64,000 nucleotides of DNA from Candidatus Methanophagales archaeon (GCA_017883965.1 JAFNKG010000005.1:194-64193), one strand, 5' to 3'. Counted from the first letter of the stretch, positions 18,974-43,021 are shown. Notes: generated from the letters alone by a model not told the origin. Numbers and translations are program-made.

Positions 18974-18987
18974 GTGTCACCGGTGTC
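18974..18987 (+). promoter_or_regulatory. GTGTCAC-cg-GTGTC motif upstream of the first large antiporter subunit
   Basis: The sequence is gtgtcaccggtgtc. It shares its heptamer with the sites at 31968, 35487 and 43008. Confidence 0.3.
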
Positions 18988-19106
18988 TCGTCAGAGATAA
19001 ATGGGGAGTTTTATATCTAATGGTTTTTTATTCTATAAATGTAGAACTTTTTAGTCCTCTCGGGTGAGAATAGAATGAATAATAAAAAGGAGGAAAGTAA
19101 GGTCTG

Positions 19107-20639
19107 ATGCTGAGTATAGTTGAACAATTTCCTATACTTGTGGTTGCAATATCCTTGCTTTCCGCTTTCACTATTTTGATTGTTGGATGGCTAAACAAGA
19201 AATCTTGCTGTTTCATTTCCATCGCAACCATTCTCGTTCAGCTCGTCATGGCTATTTTTATCCTGGATCATGTCCTGACCAAAGGAACCATACATTACTG
19301 GCTTGGTGGCTGGAAGCCCCCCTGGGGCATAGAATATCTCGTGGATGCCTTGAATGCATACGTATTGGTCATCGTTCTGTTTTTAGGCTTGATATGCGCA
19401 CTACATTCAAAGAGTAGCATAGAACACGAACTGCCTCATAAAAGTGACACTTTTTATACCATTTACCAACTCTTTATAGCTGGATTATGCGGTGTAACCG
19501 TGACCGGCGATATATTTAACATGTATGTGTTCCTCGAGATATTGTCTATATCTGCGTATGCATTAGTAGCTTCGAAAGGAGGAATTGCACTGAGGGCAGG
19601 TTTTACTTACCTCGTAATGGGTTCTATCGGTGCTTGCTTCTTTTTGTTGGGGGTAGGTTTTCTGTATGTGATAACGGGTTCGCTGAACATACATGACCTC
19701 TCGCTTTTATTGCCCCCTTTATACGGAAATAGAGTGGTTCAAGCGGCTTTTATTTTCTTCATCGTGGGATTGGGTATAAAGATGGCTATCTTTCCACTTC
19801 ATACGTGGTTGCCAGATGCACACCCAGCTGCACCCAGTCCAATCTCGGCTATGCTGAGTGGAATCATGATAATGGTTGGACTTTATGCGTTAATTAGAGT
19901 GCTGTTTACACTCTTCCCCTCTTACTACAATTATGGACCCATCTTGCTTATCCTGGGTCTTCTGTCAATGACAGTGGCAAACCTCTTTGCCTTCTTCCAA
20001 AAGGACTTAAAAAGACTTCTCGCTTACTCAAGCATTGTCAATATGGGTATTATAGCCACAGGTGTAGGAGTTGCCGCTTATATTCTCTCAACTGTATCAT
20101 CACCATCAGAGGCTCCTCCAGAGGAGGCTTCTTTAGCCATGGCAGGTGCCTTACTCCATGTTTTGAGTCATGGTGTAGCCAAAGCGATGGCTTTCTTAGG
20201 TTCTGGTAACATTCATTCCAGTATCAATACCAGGGAGCTTGCGAAAATGGGAGGCGTTGGAAGGGACATGCCCTTAACAGGTTACTCGATGTCGGTAGGC
20301 TTGCTCTCATTATTAGGCTTGCCTCCCTTAATTGGTTTTTGGAGTAAATTTCTAATAATAATGTCTGTGGCAATGGCAATTCGATCTGTTGGTGGAGTGG
20401 TAATAATTATGACTTTTTTTCTTCTCTTATTTAATGTTATATATGCTGCTTCATATTATCTCAGAGTGACAAAGGTTTTAATGATGGAAAGCGGGGCTGT
20501 TAGAACCCACGAGGCACCCTTTCCAATGGTATTCTCGGTTGTTGTTTTTGCGCTCTTCTGTATAATAGGGGGTTTATTCCCCATTCCACTCATTAGATTA
20601 GCCGTAAGAGCGTCACTTATAGTTTTAGGAGGTGGATGA
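19107..20639 (+). CDS. NuoN/MrpD-family proton-pumping antiporter-like subunit (set A, D1)
   Basis: 510 aa, about 14 TM helices. Contains WLPDAHPAAPSPISAMLSG and LAYSSIVNMG. It is a paralog of 35555..37063. Confidence 0.8.
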   Translation: MLSIVEQFPILVVAISLLSAFTILIVGWLNKKSCCFISIATILVQLVMAIFILDHVLTKGTIHYWLGGWKPPWGIEYLVDALNAYVLVIVLFLGLICALHSKSSIEHELPHKSDTFYTIYQLFIAGLCGVTVTGDIFNMYVFLEILSISAYALVASKGGIALRAGFTYLVMGSIGACFFLLGVGFLYVITGSLNIHDLSLLLPPLYGNRVVQAAFIFFIVGLGIKMAIFPLHTWLPDAHPAAPSPISAMLSGIMIMVGLYALIRVLFTLFPSYYNYGPILLILGLLSMTVANLFAFFQKDLKRLLAYSSIVNMGIIATGVGVAAYILSTVSSPSEAPPEEASLAMAGALLHVLSHGVAKAMAFLGSGNIHSSINTRELAKMGGVGRDMPLTGYSMSVGLLSLLGLPPLIGFWSKFLIIMSVAMAIRSVGGVVIIMTFFLLLFNVIYAASYYLRVTKVLMMESGAVRTHEAPFPMVFSVVVFALFCIIGGLFPIPLIRLAVRASLIVLGGG

Positions 20640-22200
20640 GTTGGTGATAGTGGAATCCATAAGACCGTTGTTAGCAATTTCATGCCCATTTATTTGTGCT
20701 TTTCTCATATTACTATTTAGAAAGCGACCGAACATAAGAGAGAGCTGCACGATGTTCGCCAGCATATTGCAGTTTTTGATTATCTTTTCTATGGCACCGA
20801 TTATTGTAGAAGGAAATGTAATCGAATGCCCTCTCTTTACTATATTTACTGGACTTGATTTTATATTCAAAGTAGATGCTTTTGGTCTTATTTTCGCTAT
20901 TACTTCTTCCTCCCTGTGGATTCTGGTATCGTCCTACTCCATAGGATATATGAGGTCGCTGCGCGAACACGCCCAAACGCGATACTACGCCTGTTTCGCT
21001 TTAGCCATTTTCGGTGCGGTAGGCATAGCAATGTCCAAGAACCTGATCACAATGTACTTCTTTTATGAGGCATTAACGATAGCAACCTATCCCTTAGTGG
21101 CTCACGATGGCTTACCCGAATGGGGTCACAAGGCAGAGGAGTCTGACAAGGCACGGGAAGCACGATTTGCGGGTCGTAAATACCTAGCTTACTTGCTTAC
21201 TTCTGGTTGGTGTTTCTTTGTTGCGATAGTGTTAACGTTTTACCTTACCGGGACGACTGATTTTGAGAACGGAGGGATTTTAACGGTTGCTTCAGCATCA
21301 CGCGTGACCTTGATGCTGCTATTTGCGCTATTCATGTTGGGCTCCATGAAAGCTGCATGGATGCCTTTTCACTCATGGTTGCCAACGGCAATGGCTGCGC
21401 CAACGCCGGTGAGTGCGCTTTTGCATGCCGTAGCAGTGGTAAAGGCGGGGGTGTTTGTAGTCGTCAGAATAGTCTGTTACATATATGGTGTGGATTTGAT
21501 GAGTGCGCTTGGACTGGGGATAATACTCGCTTGTCTGGCATCTTTCACGATGATAGTTGCCAATTTATTTGCCATTGGAGAAGACAACTTGAAAAGAATG
21601 CTTGCATATTCTACTATAAACCAACTATCTTTTATAATCTTAGGAGTGGCATTATTAAGTCCTATGGGAATAACAGGAGCAATGATTCACATTCCTTTCC
21701 ATGGGTTCATGAAGATAACCCTCTTTCTGTGCGCTGGTGCGATTATGGTGGTAACAGGAAAGAGGAACATAAGTGAGATGGCGGGCATAGGACGAATAAT
21801 GCCGGTAACAATGATGGCATTTACCATAGCCGCATTTGGAATGTGCGGAATTCCACCGATATCAGGTTTTATAACTAAATGGTATATTTGCTTGGGTTCG
21901 ATGCAAGCAGGTGTGGTAGCTTTCTTATTTGTTGCCGTGATATCTTCTTTGCAGGATGTTGTTTATTACTTTCGGGTAATAAGAACTGCATTCTTTGGAA
22001 AACCAGCGGAAACAAATGGAGGAAGCGGAGAAGAAAAGACAAGAAATAAAGAAACAGAACATCCTGTATATCTTTTCATGCTCATTCCATTAGCGATAAC
22101 TGCTATTTTCTCCATCATGTTTTGCTTATTCCCACATGCATTTTATATACTCGACCTTGCGCAAATGGCGGTTAGAGATCTTTTTGGAGGTGTGGTATGA
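20632..22200 (+). CDS. NuoL/M/MrpA/D-family antiporter-like subunit (set A, D2)
   Basis: 522 aa. Contains WLPTAMAAPTPVSALLHAVAVVKAGVFVVVR and KRMLAYSTINQLSFI. Confidence 0.8.
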   Translation: MDELVIVESIRPLLAISCPFICAFLILLFRKRPNIRESCTMFASILQFLIIFSMAPIIVEGNVIECPLFTIFTGLDFIFKVDAFGLIFAITSSSLWILVSSYSIGYMRSLREHAQTRYYACFALAIFGAVGIAMSKNLITMYFFYEALTIATYPLVAHDGLPEWGHKAEESDKAREARFAGRKYLAYLLTSGWCFFVAIVLTFYLTGTTDFENGGILTVASASRVTLMLLFALFMLGSMKAAWMPFHSWLPTAMAAPTPVSALLHAVAVVKAGVFVVVRIVCYIYGVDLMSALGLGIILACLASFTMIVANLFAIGEDNLKRMLAYSTINQLSFIILGVALLSPMGITGAMIHIPFHGFMKITLFLCAGAIMVVTGKRNISEMAGIGRIMPVTMMAFTIAAFGMCGIPPISGFITKWYICLGSMQAGVVAFLFVAVISSLQDVVYYFRVIRTAFFGKPAETNGGSGEEKTRNKETEHPVYLFMLIPLAITAIFSIMFCLFPHAFYILDLAQMAVRDLFGGVV

Positions 22201-22433
22201 TGAAAATAACGTGGAATGTTTTATTCAAGATATACTACATTCTCATGGCTGTGAGTGTCTTGATAGGTTTATTGATGCTTCATTTCCATATGCTTCATTA
22301 TCACTTCCCGTTTCAATGGATACCGGCATTTTTTGCCATTTTTGGATTCTTTGGTTGCGCTCTTTTGATTCTTATAGCCAAAGGAATGGGTCACTGGCTT
22401 ATGAAGGGGGAGGATTATTATGAGAAACGCTAG
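22197..22433 (+). CDS. Small membrane protein with 2 TM helices between antiporter subunits
   Basis: 78 aa. A similarly small, unrelated 2-TM membrane ORF (43767..43994) lies just before the paralogous large subunit in set B. Confidence 0.4.
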   Translation: MMKITWNVLFKIYYILMAVSVLIGLLMLHFHMLHYHFPFQWIPAFFAIFGFFGCALLILIAKGMGHWLMKGEDYYEKR

Positions 22434-22448
22434 GAGGAGGCAGGTAAA

Positions 22449-24299
22449 ATGATTGAATGGATACATCCAGGGATTGTAATTTTGCTTGGCGCTTTCCTGA
22501 TACCAGTTATTAGAAACGAAAAAGTGAAGAAGGCGTACTTCCTTCTGCTCCCCATTATAGGGCTTATAATCCTAATTCTAACATCAATGGGAGTTTTTGG
22601 AATTATTCCTCCTTACCCTGACGCGCTCCATAAATGGCGTATCCCGTTTTTGCATTATACGCTCGAATTAGGAAGGATAGATAAATTGAGCATGATTTTC
22701 GCATACGTATACGTGATTGCTGCGTTTTGCATGAATATATTTGCACTCCGCGTGAAGAAGGATTGGGAGCATGTAGCAGCAATGATCTATGTTGGGAGTT
22801 CGCTTGGAGCAGTTTTCGCTCGTGACCTTTTTACTCTGTATTTCTTTTTGGAGATAATGTCTTTCTCAGCCACATTCCTCGTTTGGTTCCGAGGGACGAA
22901 GACAGCAATGGGTGCTGGATTTAGATATCTTTTTTGGCACCTTTTCAGTGGTGTATGCGTGTTGGCAGGTGCTATCATACATGTGCAAACCACTGGGTCA
23001 ATTGAATTTGTTCATTTCCCCTGGGGATTGGGCTGGGATTATTTTGGCTATTACCTCATACTCCTTGGATTTCTAATAAATTCTGCTTGTACTCCATTCC
23101 ATTCATGGTTGTCTGATGCCTATTCTGAGGCATCTGTTACTGGCGCTATATATATGACCGCATATACTACAAAGACTGGGATATATTGTTTGATAAGAGG
23201 TTTCTCTGGTGTGGAGATTGTTATGTTTATGGGGGCGATAAGTGCCGTGTTTGCACTTTTCCTGGCGGTGCTTGAGAACGATGGAAGAAGACTCTGCTCC
23301 TATCACATCATCTCTCAGCTTGGATACATGGTATGTGGAGTAGGAATAGGAACTCACATGGCAGTAAACGGTGCGGCTTCTCATGCTCTCTGTCATATTA
23401 TCTACAATGCGCTGCTTTACATGGGTGCAAGTACTGTCTTGTCAGTAGCAGGAACGAGCAAATTCAGTGAAACGGGCGGTCTCTACAAATATATGCCCCT
23501 CTCTTGGGCACTTTACATGGTTGGTGGTTTTTCCATTTCCGGATTCCCTCTATTCAATGGATTTGTGAGCAAGTGCATGACTATAGAGGCTGCAGAATTG
23601 ATACATCAACCAATTGTATATTTACTACTTGAAGGAGCTACGGTAGGAACTTTCCTACATACTGGTCTGAAACTTCCCTGGAATATATGGTTTCAAGGGA
23701 GAAAGGAGCCACCAGCAGATATAAAGGCAAAACTAAAAGAGTCGCGTATAAATACGCCTATAAACATGTTAGTTGGCATGGGCATCTTAGCGTTTCTGTG
23801 CATTTTTATTGGTGTATATCCTTATATACTTTATGGCATGCTTCCTCATCCAGTTGAGTTCATTCCTTTCACGCCTACTCGTGTATTTTCAATACTGCAA
23901 CTCTTTCTATTCACATTTCCAGCATTTTGGTTATTAAGAGCATTGGTTCGTGGCATGCCAACATATACAGTTGATTCAGATTGGTTCGGTAGAATACTTG
24001 GTAGTGCGCTTATCTTGTTCTGCGAGAGACAGTTAATGGCATTTGGAGCTTTCATTGACCGTAATGTAATGAGAATGGCAGTTCATTTTCGCTTTCTCAT
24101 ACCAAAGACTCAGCCAGTTGTTGAGGATCCACTGGATAAAGCGTTTCACGAGAGACTTCCTGCTCTTCTAAACTTCGAAAAGACCCATGACAAAATAAAG
24201 CAATTTAAGCTCAGGGAATTGTCGTATAATTTGGTGTATATAATTTTTGCTATGCTACTCCTTCTCCTATATATACTATTTATGGTGGTGATGAAATGA
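22449..24299 (+). CDS. NuoM/MrpD-family antiporter-like subunit with a C-terminal extension (set A, M1)
   Basis: 616 aa. Contains WLSDAYSEASVTGAIYM and LCSYHIISQLGYM. The C-terminal tail ...DPLDKAFHERLP... ends in a transmembrane segment. It is a paralog of 43987..45810. Confidence 0.8.
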   Translation: MIEWIHPGIVILLGAFLIPVIRNEKVKKAYFLLLPIIGLIILILTSMGVFGIIPPYPDALHKWRIPFLHYTLELGRIDKLSMIFAYVYVIAAFCMNIFALRVKKDWEHVAAMIYVGSSLGAVFARDLFTLYFFLEIMSFSATFLVWFRGTKTAMGAGFRYLFWHLFSGVCVLAGAIIHVQTTGSIEFVHFPWGLGWDYFGYYLILLGFLINSACTPFHSWLSDAYSEASVTGAIYMTAYTTKTGIYCLIRGFSGVEIVMFMGAISAVFALFLAVLENDGRRLCSYHIISQLGYMVCGVGIGTHMAVNGAASHALCHIIYNALLYMGASTVLSVAGTSKFSETGGLYKYMPLSWALYMVGGFSISGFPLFNGFVSKCMTIEAAELIHQPIVYLLLEGATVGTFLHTGLKLPWNIWFQGRKEPPADIKAKLKESRINTPINMLVGMGILAFLCIFIGVYPYILYGMLPHPVEFIPFTPTRVFSILQLFLFTFPAFWLLRALVRGMPTYTVDSDWFGRILGSALILFCERQLMAFGAFIDRNVMRMAVHFRFLIPKTQPVVEDPLDKAFHERLPALLNFEKTHDKIKQFKLRELSYNLVYIIFAMLLLLLYILFMVVMK

Positions 24300-25795
24300 T
24301 GATACCCTATATTCTCCTCCAAACAATAGTAGTGCCAGTTATAGCCTCCCTGATCATAATTTTAACCAAATACAAAATAGGAAGAAAATCAGGATGGATA
24401 CCATGTATAACCCTGCTATACACTAATGCTCTTCTCTGCATAGCGGGCATCAGAGTTTATCAGGGTGCAGTAATTAGCGAGGAATACGTGTGGGGACCAT
24501 ATGTGATATTTGGTCTCTTAGCTGACGGTTTGAGTCTACCGGTTGCGTTGATAATAAATATAATATGCACTGCCCTTGCATTTTACTCAATACACTATGT
24601 GGAACACAGAACAGATATAATATATGGAGAAGAGGATGAAAAGACAAAACTTTCCTATTACACCACGTTTTTCTGGCTATACCTCCTCTTTCCCGCAAGT
24701 TTCATCGGTATTTGCTTTGCTGCAAACCTCATAGTAATATATCTTTTTATAGAATTAATGGTTATTCCCCTCTACTTCATAATGAGTTTATTTGGTTATA
24801 TAGAGCGCTTTAGGGTTGCCGTAATGTGTTTCCTATGGGGAATTGTTGGTGGAACATTCGTCTTATTTGGATCTGTATTAGTTTATTCTCAGATAGGAAC
24901 CTTTGAAATCTCGGAGTTACACACCCTTGCCGGGAATCCATTGGTTATTTGGATTGCATTACTTATCCTTCTCGGTTTATTTACTAAGCTGGCAGTATTT
25001 CCCCTTCACGTTTGGATGCCCTGGGTTCACGCAGAGCATCCCACATGCATAGCTGGGTTGCTTGCTATTTATGCGAATATAGGAGCCTATGTGATTGTCA
25101 GGGTTCTCATCTTACCACTCCATAATGATCTCAAAATTTTCAGCATACCTATCATGATAATGGCTATGATAACCATAGTATATGGTGCGCTCCTCACACT
25201 GGCTCAAGATGACGTGAAGCGACTCTGTGCTTGCTCAACTATCGGTCAGATATCATACTCTCTCGTTGGACTGGGAGCACTCACCATCTGGAGTATTGAA
25301 GGCGGAATGTTTTATTTCCTGAGTCATATCCTGGGTAAAGCCATTCTCTTCTCAACTGCAGGTATAGTAGTTTACGTAACGGGAATCAGGGATATGAATA
25401 AGATGGGGGGACTTATACATAAGATGCCAATAGCCGCTACGCTCTGGATATCAGGCTCAATAATTCTCACAGGGGTTCCTCTCTCAAGCGGTTTTACAGG
25501 GAAATGGATACTGTTTACAGGCGTTTTCGGTGCATATCCAACTTCCTTCGGACTGATAATTGCGATTATAGGTATCTTCTCAACCATATTGACGGGAGCA
25601 TATACATTCTGGGCTGCGTATAGAATATTCTTTAAGGGCCCCTTGAAGCCTGAACTATTAAATGATCCTGAGATCAAGGATCCTCCATTAACGATGAGTA
25701 TTCCTCTTCTCATCCTGGCAGTTATATCTATCATCATAGGCTTGTATCCTAAACCCCTCATGGATCTCTTTCACTCTGTGATAGGATTATTATGA
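24296..25795 (+). CDS. NuoN/MrpD-family antiporter-like subunit (set A, N1)
   Basis: 499 aa. Contains VWMPWVHAEHPTCIAGLLA and KRLCACSTIGQISYS. It is a paralog of 39242..40753. Confidence 0.8.
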   Translation: MMIPYILLQTIVVPVIASLIIILTKYKIGRKSGWIPCITLLYTNALLCIAGIRVYQGAVISEEYVWGPYVIFGLLADGLSLPVALIINIICTALAFYSIHYVEHRTDIIYGEEDEKTKLSYYTTFFWLYLLFPASFIGICFAANLIVIYLFIELMVIPLYFIMSLFGYIERFRVAVMCFLWGIVGGTFVLFGSVLVYSQIGTFEISELHTLAGNPLVIWIALLILLGLFTKLAVFPLHVWMPWVHAEHPTCIAGLLAIYANIGAYVIVRVLILPLHNDLKIFSIPIMIMAMITIVYGALLTLAQDDVKRLCACSTIGQISYSLVGLGALTIWSIEGGMFYFLSHILGKAILFSTAGIVVYVTGIRDMNKMGGLIHKMPIAATLWISGSIILTGVPLSSGFTGKWILFTGVFGAYPTSFGLIIAIIGIFSTILTGAYTFWAAYRIFFKGPLKPELLNDPEIKDPPLTMSIPLLILAVISIIIGLYPKPLMDLFHSVIGLL

Positions 25796-25837: not shown

Positions 25838-26126
25838 TATAAAAAGAGAGGAAAAGGAGATGGGAAGTAAATTCAGTAGTGCGGTGAAATGTTTTATTAA
25901 ATGTCCAGTGTGCACAATTAGACTTATGCGGAGTTTTGGTTCGTATGATCAGGGGACAGAGGAATTAATAAAGAAAAGTTGTCCTGAAGTAGACGTGGAG
26001 AGCTTAGGTTATTACTTCGGTATTTTCCAGGCTATTATCTTCGTTGTTCTTTGTGTGATGGCGTATCTATTTTTTTACGCGCTTAAAGTCGTTCTCTTTT
26101 ACCGGGAAATGCTTTTCCCTCCATGA
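25838..26126 (+). repeat. Left copy of an approximately 290 bp direct repeat flanking the HEAT/IS66 block
   Basis: ggagatgggaagtaaattca...aaatgttttattaaatgtccagtg recurs at 28481..28770. Confidence 0.6.
25860..26126 (+). CDS. Small tail-anchored Cys-rich protein (CF.K.PV...R.M / CPEV family)
   Basis: 88 aa. Contains KCFIKCPVCTIRLM...SCPEVDVESLG followed by one TM helix. It belongs to the same family as 43097..43378 and 43432..43704 and the C-terminal tail of 43987..45810. Confidence 0.5.
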   Translation: MGSKFSSAVKCFIKCPVCTIRLMRSFGSYDQGTEELIKKSCPEVDVESLGYYFGIFQAIIFVVLCVMAYLFFYALKVVLFYREMLFPP

Positions 26127-26944: not shown

Positions 26945-26953
26945 ACCTTTTTA

Positions 26954-28770: not shown

Positions 28771-28816
28771 AAAAATCGAAATGCTTTTTATTTGTGTATC
28801 TTTTATATTAAAAAAT

Positions 28817-33263: not shown

Positions 33264-35233
33264 AAATAGGCGTTTATATATGTCACTGTGGGACGAACAT
33301 AGCAGCAACGGTGGATGTGAACGAGGTAACGAAGTTTGCAAAGAATCTATCAGGCGTTGCTATATCGAGAGATTACGTTTATATGTGCTCAGATCCAGGT
33401 CAGGAGCTGATAAAAAAGGACATTTTAAATGCGAAGCTGGACAGAGTTGTTGTTGCTTCCTGCTCTCCGAGGATGCACGAAGTTACTTTCAGAGGGGCGT
33501 GTGAGGAAGTGGGATTGAACGGCTATTGCATGGAAATGGCAAATATAAGGGAACAGTGCAGTTGGGTTCATTCTGACAAAGAAAAGGCGACAGAGAAAGC
33601 AAAGGAACTGGTGGCGAGTGCAGTTGCAAAAGCATCTTTATTACAGCCTTTGGAGCCAATGCGAGTAGGTGTAACGCCTTCTGCACTGATAATAGGAGGA
33701 GGAATAGCAGGAATTCAATGTGCATTAGATATTGCAGATGCAGGTTTTCAGGTGTATTTAGTAGAAAGGGAGCCCTCAGTAGGCGGGCACATGGCACAGC
33801 TTGATAAGACTTTTCCAACTTTGGATTGTTCTGCTTGCATTCTCACACCGAAGATGGCGGATGTGGCTCGCCATAAGAACATCGAGCTGGTTACTTATGC
33901 GGATGTGGAGAACGTAGAGGGCTACATAGGGAATCTCAAGGTGGTGGTGAGGAAGAAAGTGAGGTATGTGGATGAAGAAAAATGCACGGGATGCGGTTAT
34001 TGTGCGAAAGTGTGTCCCGTGACCATCTCTAATGAGTTTGATATGGGATTAGGAACGAGAAAAGCAGCTTATATCCCTTTTCCACAGGCTGTTCCTTTAG
34101 CTTACACGCTTGAGCGTGCAAAATGTATGGGTTGTGCTCTGTGCGAAGTAGTATGTGAGGTGGGAGCGATAAATTTTGAAGATGATGATGAGGAAATCGA
34201 GTTAGAAGTAGGAGCGATAGTAGTGGCGACGGGTTATGATTTATTTGACCCTTCTTTAGAGCCGAATTACGGCTATGAGTATGATAGGGTAATAACGGGC
34301 TTGGAGTTTGAGCGGCTTTGTAACGCTTCGGGTCCGACAAAGGGGGGTATAGAAATAAATGGTAAAGAGCCGAAAGATGTGGTTTTCATAAGCTGCGTGG
34401 GCTCGAGGGAGAAAGATGTGGAGGGAGGGAAAGGGAATGAATGTTGCTCTCGTGTATGTTGCATGTATATAGCGAAACAAGCGCATTTGGTGAAGGAGCA
34501 GATACCGGATGCGAATGTAACTGTTTTTTATACGGATGTTCAAGCATTCGGTAAAGGATTTGAAGAATTCTACTGGCGAGTGAAAGAAGAGGGAGTTAAT
34601 TACATAAGAAGGGAGTTAAAAGACGAGATAAAAGTAGAGAAGAAAGAGAATGGGAGGTTGAAAGTAAAAACAGTAAGAGAAGGTCGCCCGATAGAGAAGG
34701 AAGCAGACCTCGTAGTGCTCGCAACCGGCATTGTTCCTCGAAGGGATGTCTCTGACCTTGTAAGGAAATTGAAGATAACACAAAGTGGCGATAAATTCTT
34801 CCTTGAGGCACATCCAAAACTCCGCCCGATGGATACGCTTACTGATGGTATTTTCATCACTGGCTGTTGTCAATCGCCAAAAGACATTCCGGATAGCGTT
34901 GCACAGGCATCGGCTGCGGCATCGAGGGTTTGTAGCATATTATCTCAGGACTATATAGAAGTAGAGCCGATAATCGCAGAAGTAAAAGAAGAACTTTGCA
35001 TCGGCTGTGGTTCTTGTAAGGAAGTTTGTCCCTTCGGAGCGATAGAGTTAAAAGAAGAAGAAAGGCAGTTTGAGGAAATCGTGTTAAGAACGAGGAAATC
35101 GTATGTGACCCCAGCGCTCTGCAAAGGTTGTGGCGCTTGCATTCCCGAATGCCCCGTCAGTGCGATGACACAAAAGCACTTCACATCTGCACAGATAGAG
35201 GCGATGCTGAGGGGAGTTGGTGTTACAGCGTGA
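33260..35233 (+). CDS. hdrA: Heterodisulfide reductase subunit A (HdrA), FAD/Fe-S protein
   Basis: 657 aa. The FAD-binding site GGGIAGIQCALDIADAGFQVYLVEREPSVGGHMAQLD is present, with several ferredoxin CxxCxxCxxxCP motifs (CTGCGYCAKVCP, CIGCGSCKEVCP, CKGCGACIPECP). Confidence 0.85.
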   Translation: MKIGVYICHCGTNIAATVDVNEVTKFAKNLSGVAISRDYVYMCSDPGQELIKKDILNAKLDRVVVASCSPRMHEVTFRGACEEVGLNGYCMEMANIREQCSWVHSDKEKATEKAKELVASAVAKASLLQPLEPMRVGVTPSALIIGGGIAGIQCALDIADAGFQVYLVEREPSVGGHMAQLDKTFPTLDCSACILTPKMADVARHKNIELVTYADVENVEGYIGNLKVVVRKKVRYVDEEKCTGCGYCAKVCPVTISNEFDMGLGTRKAAYIPFPQAVPLAYTLERAKCMGCALCEVVCEVGAINFEDDDEEIELEVGAIVVATGYDLFDPSLEPNYGYEYDRVITGLEFERLCNASGPTKGGIEINGKEPKDVVFISCVGSREKDVEGGKGNECCSRVCCMYIAKQAHLVKEQIPDANVTVFYTDVQAFGKGFEEFYWRVKEEGVNYIRRELKDEIKVEKKENGRLKVKTVREGRPIEKEADLVVLATGIVPRRDVSDLVRKLKITQSGDKFFLEAHPKLRPMDTLTDGIFITGCCQSPKDIPDSVAQASAAASRVCSILSQDYIEVEPIIAEVKEELCIGCGSCKEVCPFGAIELKEEERQFEEIVLRTRKSYVTPALCKGCGACIPECPVSAMTQKHFTSAQIEAMLRGVGVTA

Positions 35234-35486
35234 AAGAGGAGAAGGAAGCCCTGATTTATGTTGTCATATACACTCAACTACTCGTTTTTTGTAAACGTTT
35301 TTTATCCTTGCTAAAATTGATTCCAATCCCAAGGAAGCTGGTTGAATACGTGGAAAGCGAGGGCAAACATTACGGAATGAAAAGGTCTTTAATTGTGCGA
35401 CACAGCACAGCATGTTTTTACATCTTCGACATTTCAAGCTGAAGTTTAACGCCGAAAAGCAAGATATCTTTCTTGCAGTTTTCAGC

Positions 35487-35502
35487 GTGTCACCAGTGAC
35501 AC
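35487..35502 (+). promoter_or_regulatory. Palindrome GTGTCAC-ca-GTGACAC upstream of antiporter set B
   Basis: The sequence is gtgtcaccagtgacac, a perfect inverted heptamer, about 55 nt upstream of 35555. Confidence 0.35.
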
Positions 35503-35554
35503 ATAGAGGGAAAAAGAATAACTTTATATATTTTGTTTCCTATAAACAGTTCTG

Positions 35555-37063
35555 ATGTTGAGTGTAGTTGAACATTTTCCTGTGCTTATCGTTGTAATAT
35601 CGCTGTTTTCTGCATTCACCATCTTGATTGTCGGCTCTGTGAAGAAGAAATCGTGCTGTTTCATTTCCATTGGAACCATTCTCGTTCAATTCGTCATGGC
35701 TGTTTTTATCCTGCGTCATGTCCTGACTGAAGGAACCATTCATTACTGGCTCGGGGGATGGAGCCCGCCATGGGGCATAGAATATGTCGTAGATGCCTTG
35801 AATGCATACGTATTGGTCATACTTCTGGTTTTAGCTTTGATATGTGCGATATATTCAAAGAGGAGCATAGAGCACGAATTGCCGCATAAAATTGTCCCTT
35901 TTTATACCATTTATCAACTCCTTATCACTGGTCTGTGCGGTATAACCGTGACCGGCGATATTTTTAATATGTATGTGTTTGTCGAGATAACGTCCTTATC
36001 TGCGTATGCGTTAGTAGCATCGAGGGGTAAAATAGCGTTAAAGGCGAGTTTTACTTACCTCGTATTGGGCTCCATCGGTGCTTGCTTCTTCTTGTTGGGG
36101 GTAGGTTTCCTGTATTCAGTAACGGGTTCGCTGAACATGCACGACCTCTCGCTCTTATTACCACCTTTATACGGGAATAGAGTAGTTCAGGCGGCTTTTG
36201 TTTTTTTCATAGTTGGACTAAGCATAAAAATGGCGCTATTCCCGCTTCATACGTGGTTACCAGATGCACATGCCTTTGCACCTTCGGAGATAAGCGCAAT
36301 GCTTTCCGGTATAATCATCGAGGTTTGCACCTATGCATATATAAGGGTTGCGTTCTCTGTATTCACGCTGGAGTTCATCACGCTTTACGTGCCTATATCC
36401 GGTATACTTTGCTGGATATCTGCAATAGCCATGATCTTTGGTTCTATTCTTGCGATAGCGCAGTTTAATTTAAAGAGGATGCTTGCTTATTCGAGTGTAG
36501 CGCATATGGGCTATATTATGCTCGGTGTGGGGCTTTCCACTTCCAACCCTTTAGGACTAACTCCTCCTTTGATGCACATACTGAACCACGCATTGATGAA
36601 AGGATGCTTGTTCCTGGTTGCCGGTGCTTTTATTTACAAGGCGGATTTGTGGAATATAACGGATTTCCGGGGTTTGGGAAGAAAAATGCCTTATACATGC
36701 ATGGCCTTCATTTTAGCTGCTCTCTCAATGTTAGGAATGCCACCAAGCGTGGGATTCGTCACGAAATGGTATCTAATAATTGCCGCTTTGGAGGCAAAAC
36801 AATTTATATTTGTGGCGGTGATATTCTTTAGCACGCTTCTTATGGTATTTTATTTTTGGCGTGTGATAGAATATATGTATATAAGGGTGGGAGACGAGGA
36901 AGGAAAAGAAAAGGAAATAGAGGAGATACCGAGGAGTATGCTCATCCCGGTGTTAGTACTCGCATTTCTCTGTTTCATCATGGGAATTATCTGGCTCACT
37001 GAGATACCTTTACCCATATTGGACGCAGTTAATTCAATGTATGGATTGGGGGTGGTGCCATAA
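35555..37063 (+). CDS. NuoN/MrpD-family antiporter-like subunit (set B, D1')
   Basis: 502 aa. The N-terminal 70 aa are nearly identical to those of 19107..20639. Contains LAYSSVAHMG. Confidence 0.8.
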   Translation: MLSVVEHFPVLIVVISLFSAFTILIVGSVKKKSCCFISIGTILVQFVMAVFILRHVLTEGTIHYWLGGWSPPWGIEYVVDALNAYVLVILLVLALICAIYSKRSIEHELPHKIVPFYTIYQLLITGLCGITVTGDIFNMYVFVEITSLSAYALVASRGKIALKASFTYLVLGSIGACFFLLGVGFLYSVTGSLNMHDLSLLLPPLYGNRVVQAAFVFFIVGLSIKMALFPLHTWLPDAHAFAPSEISAMLSGIIIEVCTYAYIRVAFSVFTLEFITLYVPISGILCWISAIAMIFGSILAIAQFNLKRMLAYSSVAHMGYIMLGVGLSTSNPLGLTPPLMHILNHALMKGCLFLVAGAFIYKADLWNITDFRGLGRKMPYTCMAFILAALSMLGMPPSVGFVTKWYLIIAALEAKQFIFVAVIFFSTLLMVFYFWRVIEYMYIRVGDEEGKEKEIEEIPRSMLIPVLVLAFLCFIMGIIWLTEIPLPILDAVNSMYGLGVVP

Positions 37064-39153
37064 TGATAGCAGAAGTTGCCTGGTTATGCTTCCTTTTTCC
37101 TTTTGCCGGCGCGCTTTTATCTCCTGTTCTAGCCAGAATTCATCCTAAGCTCAGAGATTATGGGGCGGTGTTTTTCTCTTTCCTCGCAGCTCTATCCAGC
37201 GTGATGTTCATACCCTATTTATTTCATCCCTCGAAGTTGCCAATCGAGAGTGCTTTTGTATGGCTCACCACACCCATAGAATTGAGAGTTGGTGTTTTGA
37301 TTGATCCTTTGAGTATAGTGATGGCAAATGTAGTTGCAGTTATAAGCTTTATAATAATGGTTTATTCCCTGGGGTATATGAAGGGAGACCCTTCCTTAAC
37401 AAGGTGGTGGATGTGGATGAACCTTTTCATTGGAAGTATGCTCCTTCTGGTTCTTTCCAATAACTTGCTATTTCTCTTCGTCGGATGGAAAATGGTAGGC
37501 TTGTGCAGCTATGGATTAATAGGTTTTTACTATAGGGACGAGAAGAAATACTGGATAGGTGGTCCTTCCCCCACTAAATACTGCACACCTTCCCACGCAG
37601 GCTTAAAAGCTTTAGTTGTAACGTCCGCTGGGGATGTTCTCATGTTAGGTGGGATTCTTATAATGTATTCCTATTCGGGAACCTTAAACATCCTGGAACT
37701 TTATGAGACTTCATCAATATGGATACCGGAAATGGCAAAGTCATCGGGAATGATCTTACTGGCGAGTATTCTCCTTCTTGCAGGACCCATCGGTAAGTCA
37801 GCACAGTTTCCACTTCACGAGTGGCTTCCGGAAGCTATGGCAGGTCCTGGTCCAGTTTCAGCACTGATCCATGCAGCAACAATGGTTAAAAGCGGGGTTT
37901 ATCTGGTTGCCAGATTCATACCAATTTTCTTCTACGGCTATTGGGTAGCTGGATGCAGCGAAGCTTCTTATTTCTTCATTTTAACCGCTTGGGTAGGTGC
38001 AATCACAGCCTTTTTGGCTGCTACTCAAGGTATGGTCTCCTTGGAACTGAAAAAAGCGCTTGCATTTTCTACCGTTAGTCAGATAGGCTACATGATGCTT
38101 GCATTAGGAGTATCCGGATTAACTGCGCCCAGTCTAATGGGAGGCTTTACATCAGGAATGTTTCACCTGGTAAATCATGCTCTGTTTAAGGCTTGTCTCT
38201 TCCTTTGCGCTGGTTCGGTCATTCACACCGCTCACTCTATCTATATGAACGATATGGGCTCCATCAGAAAGTACATGCCGTTTACCTGGATTTTCATGTT
38301 TATTGCGGCTCTATCTCTGATGGGTGTTCCGCCACTGCCTGGATTTTGGAGTAAAGACGCCATTCTTGTATCATGTCTGGAAGCCCATAATTACCCATTA
38401 TTCTTACTCGCCTTAATTACCGTAGTCGTAACTTCATTCTATACGCTACGCTTTATAGGAATGGTCTTTCATGGAAGTGAGAGTAAAAACGTAGAAAAAT
38501 TAAAGCAAAAAGGTACGCATCTCGGTGAAGCCCACCGTACAATGGTGGGTGCATGCGGTGTTTTAGCTATCACGATTATTGTACTTGGCATATTTGGTCT
38601 CCCCTTAGAGCATTTATTAGGAGAAGGATTCGGATATACTATGGAAAAACTTCATCTGCCAGTTGAACATGCTACCGAGCATTCGATGCCTCATTTATTA
38701 GTTCCTCTTCTATCAGTAATTTCAGTGGTTATAGGTATTGTGCCGGCATATTTACTTTACATATCGAGAAAAATAGATCCAGAGGGCATGTTGGAGAAGT
38801 ATCTAACCCTGAAGGTGCTTCATAAGTTCTTCTGGAATAGGTGGTACATAGATCGTTTCTATTACATGTTTTTTGTAGGTGGAATGACCAAGCTTTTTAC
38901 TTCTGTACCCAAGTATATTGAAAATCCACTGGATAAATTGTTTCATAAGATAATCCCCTCTATTCCCGGAAGACTCTATGACGGGGGGCGGCTCATTCTG
39001 GCAAGTAAGTATGGGCGAGAGGAGGTAGAAGGGGCACCAGAAGAAGAACCAGTGGTAGGAATAAGCATAGGGCTCGCATTGCTGCTGGTGCTTTTCTGCA
39101 TCGCTTTATATTTGATAGCTATGTTTATACGTGGGTGGCTTATAAGTCCCTAA
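37063..39153 (+). CDS. NuoL/MrpA-family antiporter-like subunit with a long C-terminal extension
   Basis: 696 aa. Contains WLPEAMAGPGPVSALIHAATMVKSGVYLVARF and HLVNHALFKACLF (NuoL-like). The C-terminal tail ...NPLDKLFHKIIP... ends in a TM segment. It overlaps the upstream gene by 1 nt. Confidence 0.8.
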   Translation: MIAEVAWLCFLFPFAGALLSPVLARIHPKLRDYGAVFFSFLAALSSVMFIPYLFHPSKLPIESAFVWLTTPIELRVGVLIDPLSIVMANVVAVISFIIMVYSLGYMKGDPSLTRWWMWMNLFIGSMLLLVLSNNLLFLFVGWKMVGLCSYGLIGFYYRDEKKYWIGGPSPTKYCTPSHAGLKALVVTSAGDVLMLGGILIMYSYSGTLNILELYETSSIWIPEMAKSSGMILLASILLLAGPIGKSAQFPLHEWLPEAMAGPGPVSALIHAATMVKSGVYLVARFIPIFFYGYWVAGCSEASYFFILTAWVGAITAFLAATQGMVSLELKKALAFSTVSQIGYMMLALGVSGLTAPSLMGGFTSGMFHLVNHALFKACLFLCAGSVIHTAHSIYMNDMGSIRKYMPFTWIFMFIAALSLMGVPPLPGFWSKDAILVSCLEAHNYPLFLLALITVVVTSFYTLRFIGMVFHGSESKNVEKLKQKGTHLGEAHRTMVGACGVLAITIIVLGIFGLPLEHLLGEGFGYTMEKLHLPVEHATEHSMPHLLVPLLSVISVVIGIVPAYLLYISRKIDPEGMLEKYLTLKVLHKFFWNRWYIDRFYYMFFVGGMTKLFTSVPKYIENPLDKLFHKIIPSIPGRLYDGGRLILASKYGREEVEGAPEEEPVVGISIGLALLLVLFCIALYLIAMFIRGWLISP

Positions 39154-39241
39154 ACTTCTTTATATTATTCTTCAGCAAATGGTCACGAAAGAAATGATTA
39201 GGAACGTGGTGGATGCAACAAGAGATGGGGTGGTGATGTAA

Positions 39242-40753
39242 ATGATACCTTATATCCTTTTTCAAATAACAGCAGTACCAATTATAGCCTCCGTATTCAT
39301 ATTTTTAACCAGACCAAGATTAGGTGAGAAAGCAGGCTGGATAGTGGGTATTACCCTCTTATACACTACTGCGCTTCTTTGTATGGTTGGCATCAGAGTT
39401 TATCAGGGCACAATAATTTATGAGGAATATCCATTAGCCCCGGCGGTGAATTTTAATCTTTTAGCCGACGGTTTGAGTATACCTGTTGCATTGATAATGA
39501 ATCTGTGCTGTGTAGTCCTGGCATTTTACTCAATACACTATGTAGGACACAGAATAGAGGTAATATATGGAGAAGTGGATAAAGAGACATGGCTTATGTA
39601 TTACACGAGGTTTTTCTTTTTATTTCCCTTCTTTTCCACGGGTTTCATGGGTATTGCCTTTTCTACAAACCTTATAGCGATGTATTTCTTCATGGAACTA
39701 TTGACTATTATTCCCCTTTATTTCATAATGGCTCAATTTGGTTATTCCGATTTTATAGAGCGTTATAAAGTTGCCCTAATGTGTCTTTTCTGGGGAATTG
39801 CTGGGGCGACCCTCTTCCTGATTGGTATCCTTTTAGCATATACCCAGATAGATAGCTTTGAAATCTCGGAGTTGCGCACTCTTTCGGGAAATCCAGTAAT
39901 TACCTGGATTATCTTATGCATGCTTCTTGGTTTATTTTCTAAGCTGGCAATATTTCCACTTCATGTTTGGATGCCCTGGGTTCACGCAGAGCATCCCACA
40001 TGCATAGCTGGATTGCTTGCGGTTTATGCGAATATAGCAGCTTATGTGATGGTTAGGGTTCTCATCTTGCCACTTTATAATGATTTCAAAGTTTTTGGCA
40101 TACCTATTATGGTGTTGGCTCTGGTAACCATGGTATATGGCTCTCTTCTTGCTATGGCTCAAAATGACGTGAAACGATTCGCTGCTTGCTCAACTATAAG
40201 CCAGATATCATATTCTGTCCTTGGACTGAGCGCACTCACAATCTGGAGTATTGAAGGGGGGCTCTTTTTCTTTTTGAGTCACATCATGGGTAAAGCAATT
40301 CTCTTCTCAACCGCTGGTATATTAGTCTATGTGACAGGGATCAGGGATATGAGAGAGATGGGTGGACTCGCATCCAGGATGCCAATAACTGCTACGCTCT
40401 GGATAATGGGCGCTATGATGCTCTCAGGCCTTCCGCCTTTTAGCACCTTCGCAGCAGAATGGATAATGTTCACAGGCATCTTCATGTTTGGAGCACATGG
40501 TCCTTCTATTGCACTGATAGTTGCAATTCTGGGTGTTTCTGCAGTTGGATTAACGATTGCTTACACATTCTGGTCCGCGAAGAGAATATTTTTTGGTCCA
40601 TTGAAACCTAATCTGTCAAATGATGAAATCAGGGACCCACCATTAACGATGTGTGTTCCACTTCTACTTTTAGCTGTTGTATCAATCATCCTTGGCCTGT
40701 ATCCTAAACCCATAATGGATCTTTTTCATTTTGTGATAGGAGGAGTAATATGA
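39242..40753 (+). CDS. NuoN/MrpD-family antiporter-like subunit (set B, N1')
   Basis: 503 aa and a paralog of 24296..25795. VWMPWVHAEHPTCIAGLLA is identical between the two. Confidence 0.8.
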   Translation: MIPYILFQITAVPIIASVFIFLTRPRLGEKAGWIVGITLLYTTALLCMVGIRVYQGTIIYEEYPLAPAVNFNLLADGLSIPVALIMNLCCVVLAFYSIHYVGHRIEVIYGEVDKETWLMYYTRFFFLFPFFSTGFMGIAFSTNLIAMYFFMELLTIIPLYFIMAQFGYSDFIERYKVALMCLFWGIAGATLFLIGILLAYTQIDSFEISELRTLSGNPVITWIILCMLLGLFSKLAIFPLHVWMPWVHAEHPTCIAGLLAVYANIAAYVMVRVLILPLYNDFKVFGIPIMVLALVTMVYGSLLAMAQNDVKRFAACSTISQISYSVLGLSALTIWSIEGGLFFFLSHIMGKAILFSTAGILVYVTGIRDMREMGGLASRMPITATLWIMGAMMLSGLPPFSTFAAEWIMFTGIFMFGAHGPSIALIVAILGVSAVGLTIAYTFWSAKRIFFGPLKPNLSNDEIRDPPLTMCVPLLLLAVVSIILGLYPKPIMDLFHFVIGGVI

Positions 40754-41013
40754 GTGCTTGAAAAACTAAGACTTGACCGACAATTACGCTTGACACAGAC
40801 TGGTTCTACCGGATAACAGGATGTATTAAAACGCTTTTTCTCCAATCAAATTCATCGCTTTGTTATCCATTTAATTGCCCGCTGTTCTCGTCACTCGAAA
40901 CTTCCCCTTCTTCCATTGACAACGACCTTTCTTTGAAAAGAAAGCGTGACCAAAGAAATATGTTTTTAATAACAAAAAACCTTTTTATATATATAAAAAC
41001 AAACTTTTTGATT

Positions 41014-42402
41014 ATGATGGAAGCGAAAATGCCCCCGGAGTTAGCTGAGGCATTCTCCTCACCGAGAGGCTATTCACTGCTGATAAAGGGAGCGCCGGGG
41101 ACAGGGAAGACGATACTCGCACTTGAGCTAATCGGCGAGTTAGGCGAAGTTAATGCCGTTTACCTTTCAGCCCGGGTCTCCACTCACGCCCTTTACGACC
41201 AGCTCCCCTGGCTGGACGAATGTGTCAGCCCGTTGAACCTGATAGATGCCACAAAGTTCTACGTATCTTCGGATATAGTTCCAGGAGTGCAATCTTTCCC
41301 TGATATTCTTTACACAAGGTTAGGGAAAATAAAAAAACCCGCTACCGTTGTAATTGATAGCTGGGAAGCGATAACATCTCAGATGGAGAGGGAAAAGACA
41401 GAAGCGCTGGAAGCGGCGATTACCGAATTAGCAAGACATGCCGAAATGAAATTGATACTCGTGTCAGAGAATCTTGGTATATCATCGCTTGATTACATGG
41501 TGGATGGGATAGTAACGCTAAAGCGTTTAACGCTGAATTACAGAAGGGCGAGGGAATTAGAGATAGAGAAATTAAGGGGTATCCGAATAGACCAGCCAAA
41601 ATATGCATTCTCCTTAGAAGGAGGCAGATTTCATTATTTCAGACCTTTCGAGCGGAGGAAAATAGAGAAGCCGAGAAGAGTAGAGATTGTGCAAAATAGC
41701 GAAGCATACTTGTCTACCGGGGTCCGGGACTTAGATAAAATTCTGAGCGGGGGATTCAGAAAGGGAAGTTTTAATATTATAGAAGCCGGAGATGATATGT
41801 CTGTTTTGGGTTACCAATCCATTATCGCTCACATGATTATAAACAGCATACAGCAAGGGAATAACTGTGTATGTATTCCATGTTGCGGCTGGAATGAGCG
41901 GAGATTGAGAAGGGGGATATTGCCTTTTGTAAATGAAGAAGACTATAATAAGTTTTTCACTGTATTCGAGATAGGTTCAGAGGAGAAGGAAGATGAGGGA
42001 GAGAATGTGAGAATATTGAAAGGAGAGTCGATGAAGACGGACTTTCCCAAATTCCGGGATTTCATTTCTGATTTGGAGCCGCAAGTAATGGTAATTATCG
42101 GAGCGGATACGCTGGAGTATCCATATCAGTTGAAAGAGAAAGGTAAAGTAGGTGAAATGGTGGGGATGTTATCCCGGTTGATGATAGATGTGAGGGATGC
42201 AGATAATGTAGGTGTATTTGGAGTGACTCCGGGGCTTGTGCTGAGCAGTGAGCTGATTCACCTCTCGTCAGTGCACCTGAAGTTGACCGTGCTCGATAGA
42301 AGTGTTATCCTTTACTGCAATCGCCCTGATACCAAAGTACATTGTCTGGAGAATGTTGTTACTGATGATAGTCTTAGAATAGAACTCACTGCTATTGTAT
42401 AG
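41014..42402 (+). CDS. KaiC/RecA-superfamily two-domain ATPase, paralog of 28817..30208
   Basis: Contains GYSLLIKGAPGTGKTILALELI. It shares the stretch FERRKIEKPRRVE with the first copy, and the DNA there is identical over about 35 nt. A TATA-like ttttatatatataaaa lies just upstream. The start was trimmed to the internal ATG. Confidence 0.65.
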   Translation: MMEAKMPPELAEAFSSPRGYSLLIKGAPGTGKTILALELIGELGEVNAVYLSARVSTHALYDQLPWLDECVSPLNLIDATKFYVSSDIVPGVQSFPDILYTRLGKIKKPATVVIDSWEAITSQMEREKTEALEAAITELARHAEMKLILVSENLGISSLDYMVDGIVTLKRLTLNYRRARELEIEKLRGIRIDQPKYAFSLEGGRFHYFRPFERRKIEKPRRVEIVQNSEAYLSTGVRDLDKILSGGFRKGSFNIIEAGDDMSVLGYQSIIAHMIINSIQQGNNCVCIPCCGWNERRLRRGILPFVNEEDYNKFFTVFEIGSEEKEDEGENVRILKGESMKTDFPKFRDFISDLEPQVMVIIGADTLEYPYQLKEKGKVGEMVGMLSRLMIDVRDADNVGVFGVTPGLVLSSELIHLSSVHLKLTVLDRSVILYCNRPDTKVHCLENVVTDDSLRIELTAIV

Positions 42403-43007
42403 GGAGGAAGAAATATGGAGATAGACGTGCAGGTAATGGTAGGCAGCAACATAATTATCACCTTTGGCAGGGTAGACGTGGAGTTGACGAAAGAACAGGC
42501 GGAGAAACTAAAAGTACTTCTTGTAGATGCCCTTGAGAGAAGTGAGCGTAATCTTCTCCTCAGAGGGGTCGATAAAGGCAAGTAAAGTCCTTTCCGTGAA
42601 GAGGAAGAAGTCATCGCCACATTTCTCTCTTATCTCTTCTATACTCTTATTATCGAAATAAATCCGCTTTCCTCTTTCATCCCCTGCTCTTTGAACAGAA
42701 GCAATAAGCTCGATAATATTCTTCTCTTTCCTTTCATTTTTCTCTTCCCCTTCGGGCTCTTCATCAACCATTTTATTATTTTCATTTATTGCTTCTTTTT
42801 CGTTAATAAAAAGCTTTTCTTTTTGATTTGAAATCTTTGGTATGAAAATACTTTATATTTTCATGCTTATGGGTGTCCCGGCGGGTCATGAAAGTTTCCT
42901 TTTGTTTTATCTCACTGGATATTAAAGGACTGAGAACCTGCATTCTGCATCTTCATTGAAATTTACCGAAAACTTTATAAAGCACTGGTGCCATATAAGT
43001 AATTGGA

Positions 43008-43021
43008 GACACAAGTGTCAC
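43008..43021 (+). promoter_or_regulatory. GACACA-a-GTGTCAC inverted heptamer upstream of the small-protein genes
   Basis: The sequence is gacacaagtgtcac. Confidence 0.3.

Follow-up and report, generated by a model that had tools for sequence, protein, structure and literature searches.

The 64,000-nucleotide stretch of a Candidatus Methanophagales archaeon analyzed here (GCA_017883965.1 JAFNKG010000005.1:194-64193; hereafter the window, with positions counted from its first letter) is assigned by its homologues to ANME-1/Methanophagales, within the anaerobic methanotrophic (ANME) archaea, and carries at 16019-45810 a supercluster of antiporter genes in whose promoters a short DNA element, built from heptamers of the type GTGnCAC, recurs. 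In ANME-1 the supercluster runs, in its first half, from small Mrp subunits through A1-A2-(78 aa)-A3-A4 and an 88-aa membrane protein to ATPase 1 and, in its second half, from a 328-aa membrane protein on the minus strand (mem328) through B1-B2-B3, ATPase 2 with sm56 and as87, and the small genes to further antiporter subunits. One small-Mrp set is thereby joined to at least three sets of MrpD/MrpA-like large subunits, interleaved with two double-domain KaiC/GvpD-like ATPases; no hydrogenase or other redox module is attached, and mem328 is internally duplicated. The supercluster is also found in related metagenome contigs (L015, L025, L028, L034, L045, L055, L060 and L062; L denotes our numbered loci), and the searchable literature yielded no description of it. 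The window ATPases match the Pfam models GvpD_P-loop and KaiC and match KaiC structures in sequence.

An earlier note had claimed that GTGTCAC/GTGACAC sites recur upstream of both antiporter sets, of frhB-hdrA and of a pair of duplicated small genes, and all four site groups are indeed there. The heptamer (GTGWCAC) has eight copies in the window, starting at 18974, 19444, 27456, 31977, 31987, 35487, 35496 and 43015, against 2.46 expected, and eight or more copies were reached in none of 100 shuffles. Coding and intergenic frequencies are far from equal: intergenic DNA makes up 11.2% of the window by a hand-curated gene list, seven of the eight copies fall within it and one in coding sequence, and among all 7-mers in the window GTGWCAC ranks second for intergenic enrichment (Fisher p = 1.2e-6), being the sole non-AT-rich one among the most enriched. 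Over-representation in intergenic DNA, relative both to coding DNA and to shuffled sequence, is what a binding site would display. The two lone copies at 19444 and 27456 are probably due to chance and outside the system, the chance expectation for lone heptamers being about 2.5 per window.

The conserved unit, however, is not the exact heptamer. No exact GTGWCAC was found at equivalent places in 16 related loci, an apparent refutation that was overturned by L015, a syntenic contig whose neighborhood matches the window but lacks frhB-hdrA: its mem328-B1 intergenic region contains GTGCCACagGTGTCtt, GACATcaGTGGCAC and GTGCCAC, which align with the window sites (the window frhB array with GACATcaGTGGCAC), so that GTGCCAC/GTGGCAC stands at the homologous place. 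A free center base explains why relatives keep GTGnCAC-nn-GTGnCAC but not the exact heptamer; the claim of conservation upstream of orthologous operons thus holds for the former pattern and fails for the literal GTGTCAC/GTGACAC. The conserved unit is the 16-bp GTGnCAC-nn-GTGnCAC, with the consensus cGTGnCAC-CG-GTGnCACg, in which two (sometimes three or four) GTGnCAC heptamers have their centers 9 bp apart.

A dyad pattern, GNCAY-NN-GTGNC, matches six distinct window sites, five of them intergenic (10 strand matches against 1.14 expected); because it was picked after the sites had been seen, independent tests were needed. In 80 metagenome loci with relatives of the window ATPase, annotated by similarity to the window proteins, the 12-mer core GNCAYNNRTGNC has 33 intergenic matches in 109 kb against 34 coding matches in 639 kb, counting relatives only. 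A symmetric weight matrix trained on 24 unique sites of other ANME-1 contigs, with no window sequence among them, is still informative in the columns that the search pattern leaves free (flanking GT...AC and a spacer preference for CG), and the symmetric information profile of GTGnCAC-nn-GTGnCAC is of the kind suited to a dimeric factor. Scanned across the window, this matrix gives its top four scores to the sites of the earlier note, all intergenic (24.2 bits at 18973, 21.3 at 35486, 20.5 at 43005 and 16.5 at 31967, with a second score of 11.1 bits in the frhB array), while the maximum scores of 200 first-order Markov simulations had a mean of 12.0, with 16.1 as the 95th percentile and 20.4 as the largest value. 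Three newly fetched B1 loci served as an out-of-sample test, and in two of them the best match in the whole 12-21 kb fell in the B1 upstream region: the best matches of L100 (16.2 and 11.7 bits in 11.7 kb) both lie within the B1 promoter, and that of L101 (14.9 bits in 21.5 kb) lies in the spacer from the NuoK-like gene to B1. The matrix scan of the third, L102, found no site; its NuoK-like to B1 spacer (9862-10000) carries tandem GAACAATGAACGAT-like repeats in place of the dyad. Orthologous intergenic regions diverge except for the element and the TATA box with its transcription factor B recognition element (BRE), a conservation that is nevertheless partial.

The distribution among genes is equally selective. 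Unique intergenic regions of the relatives hold 24 core matches in 50.1 kb beside supercluster genes against one in 25.4 kb elsewhere, a 12-fold difference in density. Counted over unique upstream regions, the core precedes L009_87, an 87-aa gene after ATPase 2, in 4/4 cases, sm90 in 3/5, A1 in 3/5 (with a heptamer in 5/5), B1 in 6/18 and mem328, through shared divergent regions, in 5/28, as compared with 0/24 for ATPase 1, 1/30 for ATPase 2, 0/10 for the 88-aa gene, 0/9 for A3 and 1/143 for unrelated open reading frames (ORFs). The earlier tie between the sites and the antiporter large-subunit operons and small genes is borne out, in that the family recurs at orthologous positions in many ANME-1 contigs, namely between the NuoK-like gene and A1/B1, between mem328 and B1, and downstream of the GvpD-like/sm56 genes.

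The window promoters are archaeal in type, with TTTATATA boxes that often have cGAAA in front. The distance from the dyad center to the nearest TTTATATA-like box (one mismatch allowed, unique contexts) shows two sharp peaks, one at +27 to +30 (10 promoters) and the other at -36 to -40 (14 promoters), and such a fixed position relative to BRE/TATA and the inferred start is again to be expected of a binding site. In the upstream class the center lies 27-30 nt upstream of the TATA box: exactly 28 in window sets A and B, 28 in L028, L033, L055 and L060, 27 in L038 and 29 in L062, with the sites located in the intergenic regions from the NuoK-like gene to A1/B1 and from mem328 to B1. In the start-site class the center lies 36-40 nt downstream of the start of the TATA box (-40 at the window small-gene promoter and in L006, L007 and L019; -39 in L030, L044 and L085; -37 in L039 and L040), a GGCAC unit comes third, 9 bp further along, and between the TATA box and the start stands a weaker dyad. 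Archaeal TATA boxes are centered near -26, from which the upstream class would be centered at about -60 and the start-site class would span about +1 to +25.

The four window sites (Table 1) exemplify both arrangements. The set A site, read originally as GTGTCACcgGTGTC at 18974-18987, has orthologues in L031, L055, L060 and L062. The set B palindrome, said to lie about 55 nt before the operon, ends 52 nt and is centered 60 nt from the ATG at 35555; the ATG lies only 25 nt beyond the TATA box, so that the mRNA would be leaderless or nearly so, and the same design is repeated in the mem328-B1 intergenic regions of L028, L033, L034 and L038. Upstream of frhB-hdrA the three direct gtgaca(c) repeats described at 31968-31993 are present (GTGACAt/GTGACAC/GTGACAC, starting at 31968, 31977 and 31987 with spacings of 9 and 10) and are preceded by a fourth, degenerate unit, aaGGCAC, at 31959-31965, the centers across the array being 9, 9 and 10 bp apart; its pair centers fall 43, 34 and 25 nt from the TATA box rather than at the canonical 28, and, as frhB starts at 32229, a long leader would follow that box. 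The small-gene site, GACACaaGTGTCAC at 43008-43021, belongs to an element at the point where transcription of the duplicated genes for small membrane proteins (43106-43378 and 43432-43704) is predicted to begin; the TATA box of this promoter, TTTATAAA, is kept in L006, L007, L009, L019, L026 and L027. In relatives, dyads of the form GGCAC/GTCAC-ct-GTGAC/GTAAC fill the place equivalent to the weaker window dyad at 42982-42992, which may be a second operator.

Table 1. Genes, putative promoter elements and heptamers of the supercluster, in window coordinates
Feature	Position	Strand	Context	Basis or score
MrpF, MrpG, MrpE, MbhD, MbhE, MnhB, NuoK-like gene	16019-18899			Pfam
Upstream-class element GTGTCACcgGTGTCtc	18974-18989		Between NuoK-like gene and A1 (19107-20639), first large subunit of set A	
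TATA box TTTATATC	19010-19017	+	Predicted internal promoter of set A large-subunit genes	Sequence reading
Set A, four Proton_antipo_M subunits	19107-25795			Pfam
Lone heptamer	19444-19450		Within A1 coding sequence	No dimer-matrix score
Lone heptamer	27456-27462		Upstream of 147-aa pilin-like gene on minus strand	No matrix score
KaiC/GvpD-like ATPase 1	28817-30208			Pfam
328-aa membrane protein gene (mem328)	30837-31823	minus		
Four-heptamer array aaGGCAC-tt-GTGACAt-aa-GTGACAC-aaa-GTGACAC	31959-31993		Upstream of frhB-hdrA, divergent from mem328	
TATA box TTTATATA	32010-32017	+	Predicted frhB-hdrA promoter	Sequence reading
frhB-hdrA	32229-35233			
Upstream-class element, perfect palindrome GTGTCACcaGTGACAC	35487-35502		Upstream of set B (B1, 35555-37063)	
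TATA box TTTATATA	35523-35530	+	Predicted set B promoter	Sequence reading
Set B, three antiporter subunits	35555-40753			
KaiC/GvpD-like ATPase 2	40960-42402			Pfam
56-aa gene sm56	42415-42585	+		
87-aa gene as87	42508-42771	minus	Convergent with sm56	
TATA box TTTATAAA	42974-42981	+	Predicted small-gene promoter, BRE-like ccGAAAAc in front	Sequence reading
Weaker dyad GCACtgGTGCC	42982-42992		Between TATA box and predicted start	6.6 bits
Start-site-class element GAGACAC-aa-GTGTCAC-ga-aaGGCAC	43006-43030		Three heptamers, centers 9 bp apart	
Two duplicated small membrane protein genes	43106-43704			
Further antiporter subunit	43987-45810			

Given the observed enrichment, the conservation at orthologous promoters, the phasing with the TATA box, the restriction to the supercluster and the absence of hairpin covariation, we regard the element as a conserved cis-element that is probably the binding site of a dimeric or oligomerizing transcription factor specific to ANME-1 and its relatives; protein binding, whether each position activates or represses, and where transcription starts are inferred, the last from standard archaeal TATA geometry. 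Archaeal activators that help recruit the TATA-binding protein (TBP) and transcription factor B (TFB) bind at about -60, upstream of the TATA box, and a protein bound from the start to about +25 blocks RNA polymerase. By analogy, the factor would sit at about -60, in an activator-type position, at the upstream-class sites (sets A and B and the atypically spaced frhB-hdrA array), and from the start to about +25, in a repressor-type position, at the start-site class of the small-gene promoter, so that one factor with a dual-position site might activate from upstream of BRE/TATA and repress from downstream. The shared operator of the earlier note would accordingly survive as one family of cis-elements, but not as a set of operators all of one type.

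Several points weigh against this reading. Promoter and start positions were derived from standard archaeal TATA geometry; in B1 promoters the element precedes the TATA box in some genomes and follows it in others (L062, L076 and L100), which is awkward for a single mode of regulation; and the element is present in only about a third to a half of the relatives' B1/A1 promoters. Relatives with a simple Mrp operon (L013, L014 and L102) have no site, and in L013 and L014 no ATPases neighbor that operon. The related loci were sampled around supercluster genes, so the specificity described above holds for such loci. The earlier note had also suggested looking for a nearby transcription factor gene, but none is recognizable among the window ORFs: searches of all of them against Pfam and NCBIfam returned no transcription factor domain save the helix-turn-helix of an AbiEi antitoxin. 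Finally, the second heptamer of the start-site class contains an RTG with which a 169-aa gene or a short upstream ORF begins, and part of the conservation of this class may be due to descent from a duplicated promoter and start codon.

This last point leads to the most serious alternative, namely that the two positions mark unlike things: the upstream class alone would be a transcription factor site, and the start-site class a conserved initiator, start codon and leader derived from duplicated promoters of the 169-aa family, with a likeness to the dyad that is due to descent or accident. The second heptamer (ATGGCAC/ATGGAGC) does hold the start codon of a 169-179-aa protein (MARKA.../MERGE...) in L006, L007, L009 and L098, a promoter of this type heads the 169-179-aa gene in L006, L007, L009 and the Alkanophagales L098/L099, and the latter group keeps only GACAC-nn-ATG; only in the start-site class does the second heptamer begin with either A or G, as a start codon would, and in the window it begins a mini-ORF in the small-gene leader, 14 codons long and with GTG as its start. 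Yet the mini-ORFs vary in length (from 3 to more than 14 codons) and in sequence, so that coding cannot explain the conserved RTGnCAC and the third unit GGCAC; the window small-gene site is a full dyad that reaches its 20.5 bits with a matrix dominated by symmetric sites; and a dyad after the TATA box is also found in the promoters of B1 (L062, L076, L100) and of A_78 (the 78-aa gene; L036, L039, L040), which are unrelated to the 169-aa gene. We consider this division of the element unlikely.

A reading at the RNA level appears very improbable. In it, a hairpin or leader structure, for instance a stem following the stop codon of the NuoK-like gene or a 5'-3' helix within the leader of the small-gene mRNA, would govern how the antiporter and small-gene transcripts are processed or translated or how stable they are. 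The set B copy can fold into a 6-bp hairpin of -7.0 kcal/mol, and in L055, L060 and L062 the site begins 4 nt past the NuoK-like stop codon; moreover, RNAalifold applied to six small-gene leaders pairs the 5' GGGACACC with a distal GGUGUCC, and GUGnC with GnCAC (the second heptamer with GGCAC), with three pair types at one position. The set B palindrome is an exception, however, since most predicted hairpins reach only -0.4 to -4 kcal/mol; the center bases of the two heptamers are complementary in just one of 15 unique upstream-class sites (and in 5/13 of the start-site class), and a lack of co-variation at these bases argues against a hairpin. The frhB array consists of direct repeats, the upstream-class sites of the divergent mem328-B1 regions lie upstream of both promoters and would stay untranscribed, and a function in RNA would not account for the fixed 28 nt to the TATA box. 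As to the leader fold, its covariation term is unfavorable (+1.07 kcal/mol), any two quasi-palindromic heptamers can pair, so that pairing potential comes free, and an Rfam search of the window gave no family match. Compensatory base-pairing of the kind that would mark an RNA hairpin, terminator or leader is thus not seen, and non-complementary centers, weak hairpins, direct repeats, divergent sites, unfavorable covariation and the absence of Rfam matches favor recognition of the DNA by a protein.

Least credible of all is the proposal that the sites are functionless, being left over from duplicated promoter segments or being a short quasi-palindrome clustered by chance. In its favor, the paralogous sets A and B have sites that both contain the 11-mer AGCGTGTCACC, and the cluster has been rearranged and duplicated (including an IS66-like relic and a duplicated 88-aa gene). 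Against it, the set A and B promoters share only about a third of the positions between element and TATA box while both of these are kept, element spacing is constant across contigs with no more than 55-85% protein identity, the relatives-only matrix scores the window sites far higher than simulated sequence, and the out-of-sample B1 test succeeded. A mobile or miniature repeat was rejected, since only the dyad and the TATA box are common to the set A, set B and frhB copies, and so, on reasoning, was restriction-site avoidance, the heptamer being undepleted in coding DNA and promoter-specific.

The functional link between antiporter modules and FrhB-HdrA that the earlier note drew from the sites is weaker. 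It is firm in this genome only, and relatives do not share the arrangement: frhB-hdrA lies between mem328 and B1 in none of about 100 related loci, and among nine related frhB loci read upstream of the gene, eight have frhB within an hdrA-frhB-hdrA string and without a promoter of its own. The closest FrhB relatives (83-85% identity) sit in hdrA-frhB-hdrA operons. From the sequence, frhB-hdrA (31824-35554) looks like a lineage-specific insertion into the mem328-B1 intergenic region that left copies of the element on both sides. In L006, L007 and L009 a string of a 169-aa gene, MetV, MetF, HdrA, FrhB and HdrA begins at a start-site-class promoter beside the ATPase 2 module, and a wider regulatory link of HdrA-FrhB genes with the supercluster is plausible. 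In the present genome frhB-hdrA is apparently under the same control as the antiporter sets, suggesting coordinated expression of ion-translocating modules and an F420/heterodisulfide-type redox module.

Known archaeal systems offer partial parallels to the proposed factor. In Thermococcales, SurR boxes (GTTn3AAC, extended GTTn3AACn5GTT) control mbh, mbx and related Mrp-type membrane complexes; like the element described here, they are short dyads in archaeal promoters of Mrp-related energy-converting membrane complexes, placed either upstream of BRE/TATA (activation) or downstream of TATA (repression), so that one factor can switch alternative modules. The extended SurR motif, however, has no match in the window, which therefore does not qualify as a SurR regulon; phylum and physiology are different, a SurR-like ArsR-type gene was not found here, and the present half-site is itself quasi-palindromic and repeated every 9 bp, sometimes three or four times. 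Haloarchaeal gas-vesicle genes are regulated through an upstream activating sequence for GvpE and the repressing ATPase GvpD, a system that resembles ours in having an upstream element beside BRE/TATA and a P-loop GvpD-type ATPase encoded in the same cluster, but differs in that no GvpE homologue was found, the targets are not gas-vesicle genes and the DNA motif is unrelated; a regulatory role of the window ATPases would, on this analogy, be pure conjecture. The Thermococcales glycolytic motif TATCAC-N5-GTGATA, bound by TrmB/TrmBL1/Tgr, likewise consists of palindromes with CAC...GTG arms that activate or repress according to where they lie with respect to the TATA box, yet its spacer has 5 nt instead of 2 and its flanks differ, and in the window it has two matches at two mismatches against 2.35 expected, none of them at these promoters. 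Ptr2, of the Lrp family, has upstream activating sites in Methanocaldococcus jannaschii that are also paired dyads at a fixed distance upstream of the TATA box, and our factor, like Ptr2, would act through TBP recruitment; its sites have another sequence, the present cluster has no Lrp/AsnC gene nearby, and Ptr2 sites are not known to occur at start sites as well.

Candidates for the factor were sought among the small proteins of the supercluster. The genes sm56 and as87 always lie directly after ATPase 2, are convergent with 3' ends that overlap by 78 nt and show coding-type third-position variation; sm56 has 61 homologues and as87 has 108, and both genes occur in ANME-1 and Alkanophagales only. 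The AlphaFold model of sm56 (predicted local distance difference test, pLDDT, 73) has three strands and a long helix, with no Foldseek match in the PDB at E<1 and no PDB sequence match; that of as87 (pLDDT 44) has the order strand-strand-helix-strand-strand. An AbrB/MazE-like nature of as87 was considered and found unsupported (hhalign probability against AbrB 0.2; PDB profile search empty), so that sm56 and as87 are both without a match in fold or sequence. The as87 product resembles the N-terminal half of the 169-aa protein heading the MetVF-HdrA-FrhB strings (tblastn E = 1.6e-4), and the 169-aa protein is by blastp a 25%-identical relative of the 87-aa L009 protein, so that as87-like and L009_87-like domains are fused in it; by sequence, as87, the 169-aa protein and L009_87 appear to be tied families. 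One could imagine a circuit of the supercluster's own, in which the KaiC/GvpD-like ATPases with sm56, as87 and L009_87, as a new DNA-binding family, read GTGnCAC arrays and switch expression between alternative antiporter modules and HdrA-FrhB electron-bifurcation genes according to the energy or redox state of the methane-oxidizing cell, although we hold it to be improbable as it stands. Our literature search turned up nothing on GvpD or KaiC in ANME, nor on the motif.

Other candidates were discarded. The proteins of 88, 102, 93 and 90 aa are small membrane proteins, similar to the C-terminal end of a 607-aa antiporter subunit. Members of this family (88, about 90 and 93 aa) are encoded at 25860-26126, 28503-28811 (frameshifted at its 3' end relative to the preceding copy), 43106-43378 and 43432-43704 and resemble the C-terminal extension of the 43987-45810 product, the tail of the 607-aa subunit apparently existing also as free-standing subunits. 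A winged-helix family of 107-118 aa recurs within the supercluster of some ANME-1 lineages and is without a window homologue, and its nine loci (L021-L025, L029, L046, L049 and L063; e.g., L024 2334-2690 and 5003-5344), where the genes often occur in two copies flanking the ATPase 2 module, are without canonical sites; these lineages may use a different regulator and motif. Downstream of the Mrp genes, at a distance of a few kb, two ANME-1 contigs encode a PAS histidine kinase (L101 18005-20927; L100 from 11390); in L101 it is succeeded by a response regulator and a member of the EarA family (Pfam PF07381).

ANME-1 archaea are uncultured and, to our knowledge, almost nothing is known about the regulation of their energy metabolism. 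The 16-bp element offers a handle on it, as an affinity probe for the factor, as a query for scanning metagenome-assembled genomes for the regulon and as an aid in interpreting metatranscriptomes; it also draws attention to a conserved and unexplained supercluster in which MrpD/MrpA-like antiporter modules are interleaved with KaiC/GvpD-like ATPases.

Further features of the locus may be mentioned. By eye, from the translations, a degraded IS66-family transposase can be made out at 27780-28460, its zinc-finger CPHCGG and C-terminal PTNNVAERALRP segments lying in different frames with stops; this relic adjoins a HEAT-repeat gene and a pilin-like gene, which interrupt the otherwise conserved order A4/88-aa gene/ATPase 1, the 88-aa gene being duplicated. 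Defense and toxin-antitoxin genes are dense at 3035-4584, 10428-12269, 12437-13214, 30227-30574 and 60035-60849 and comprise AbiEi/AbiEii, an OLD-family ATPase-TOPRIM nuclease beside RadC, and three genes for nucleotidyltransferases, of which two have a HEPN gene as partner. The small-gene leader (43022-43105) contains repeated CC(C)-GAAA(A)-GG(G) mini-hairpins and then GGATAA, with CGAAAGGG having four intergenic occurrences and no coding ones; the counterpart of the mini-hairpin in L009, L026 and L027 is CCU-CGGA-AGG, which might represent a compensatory change.

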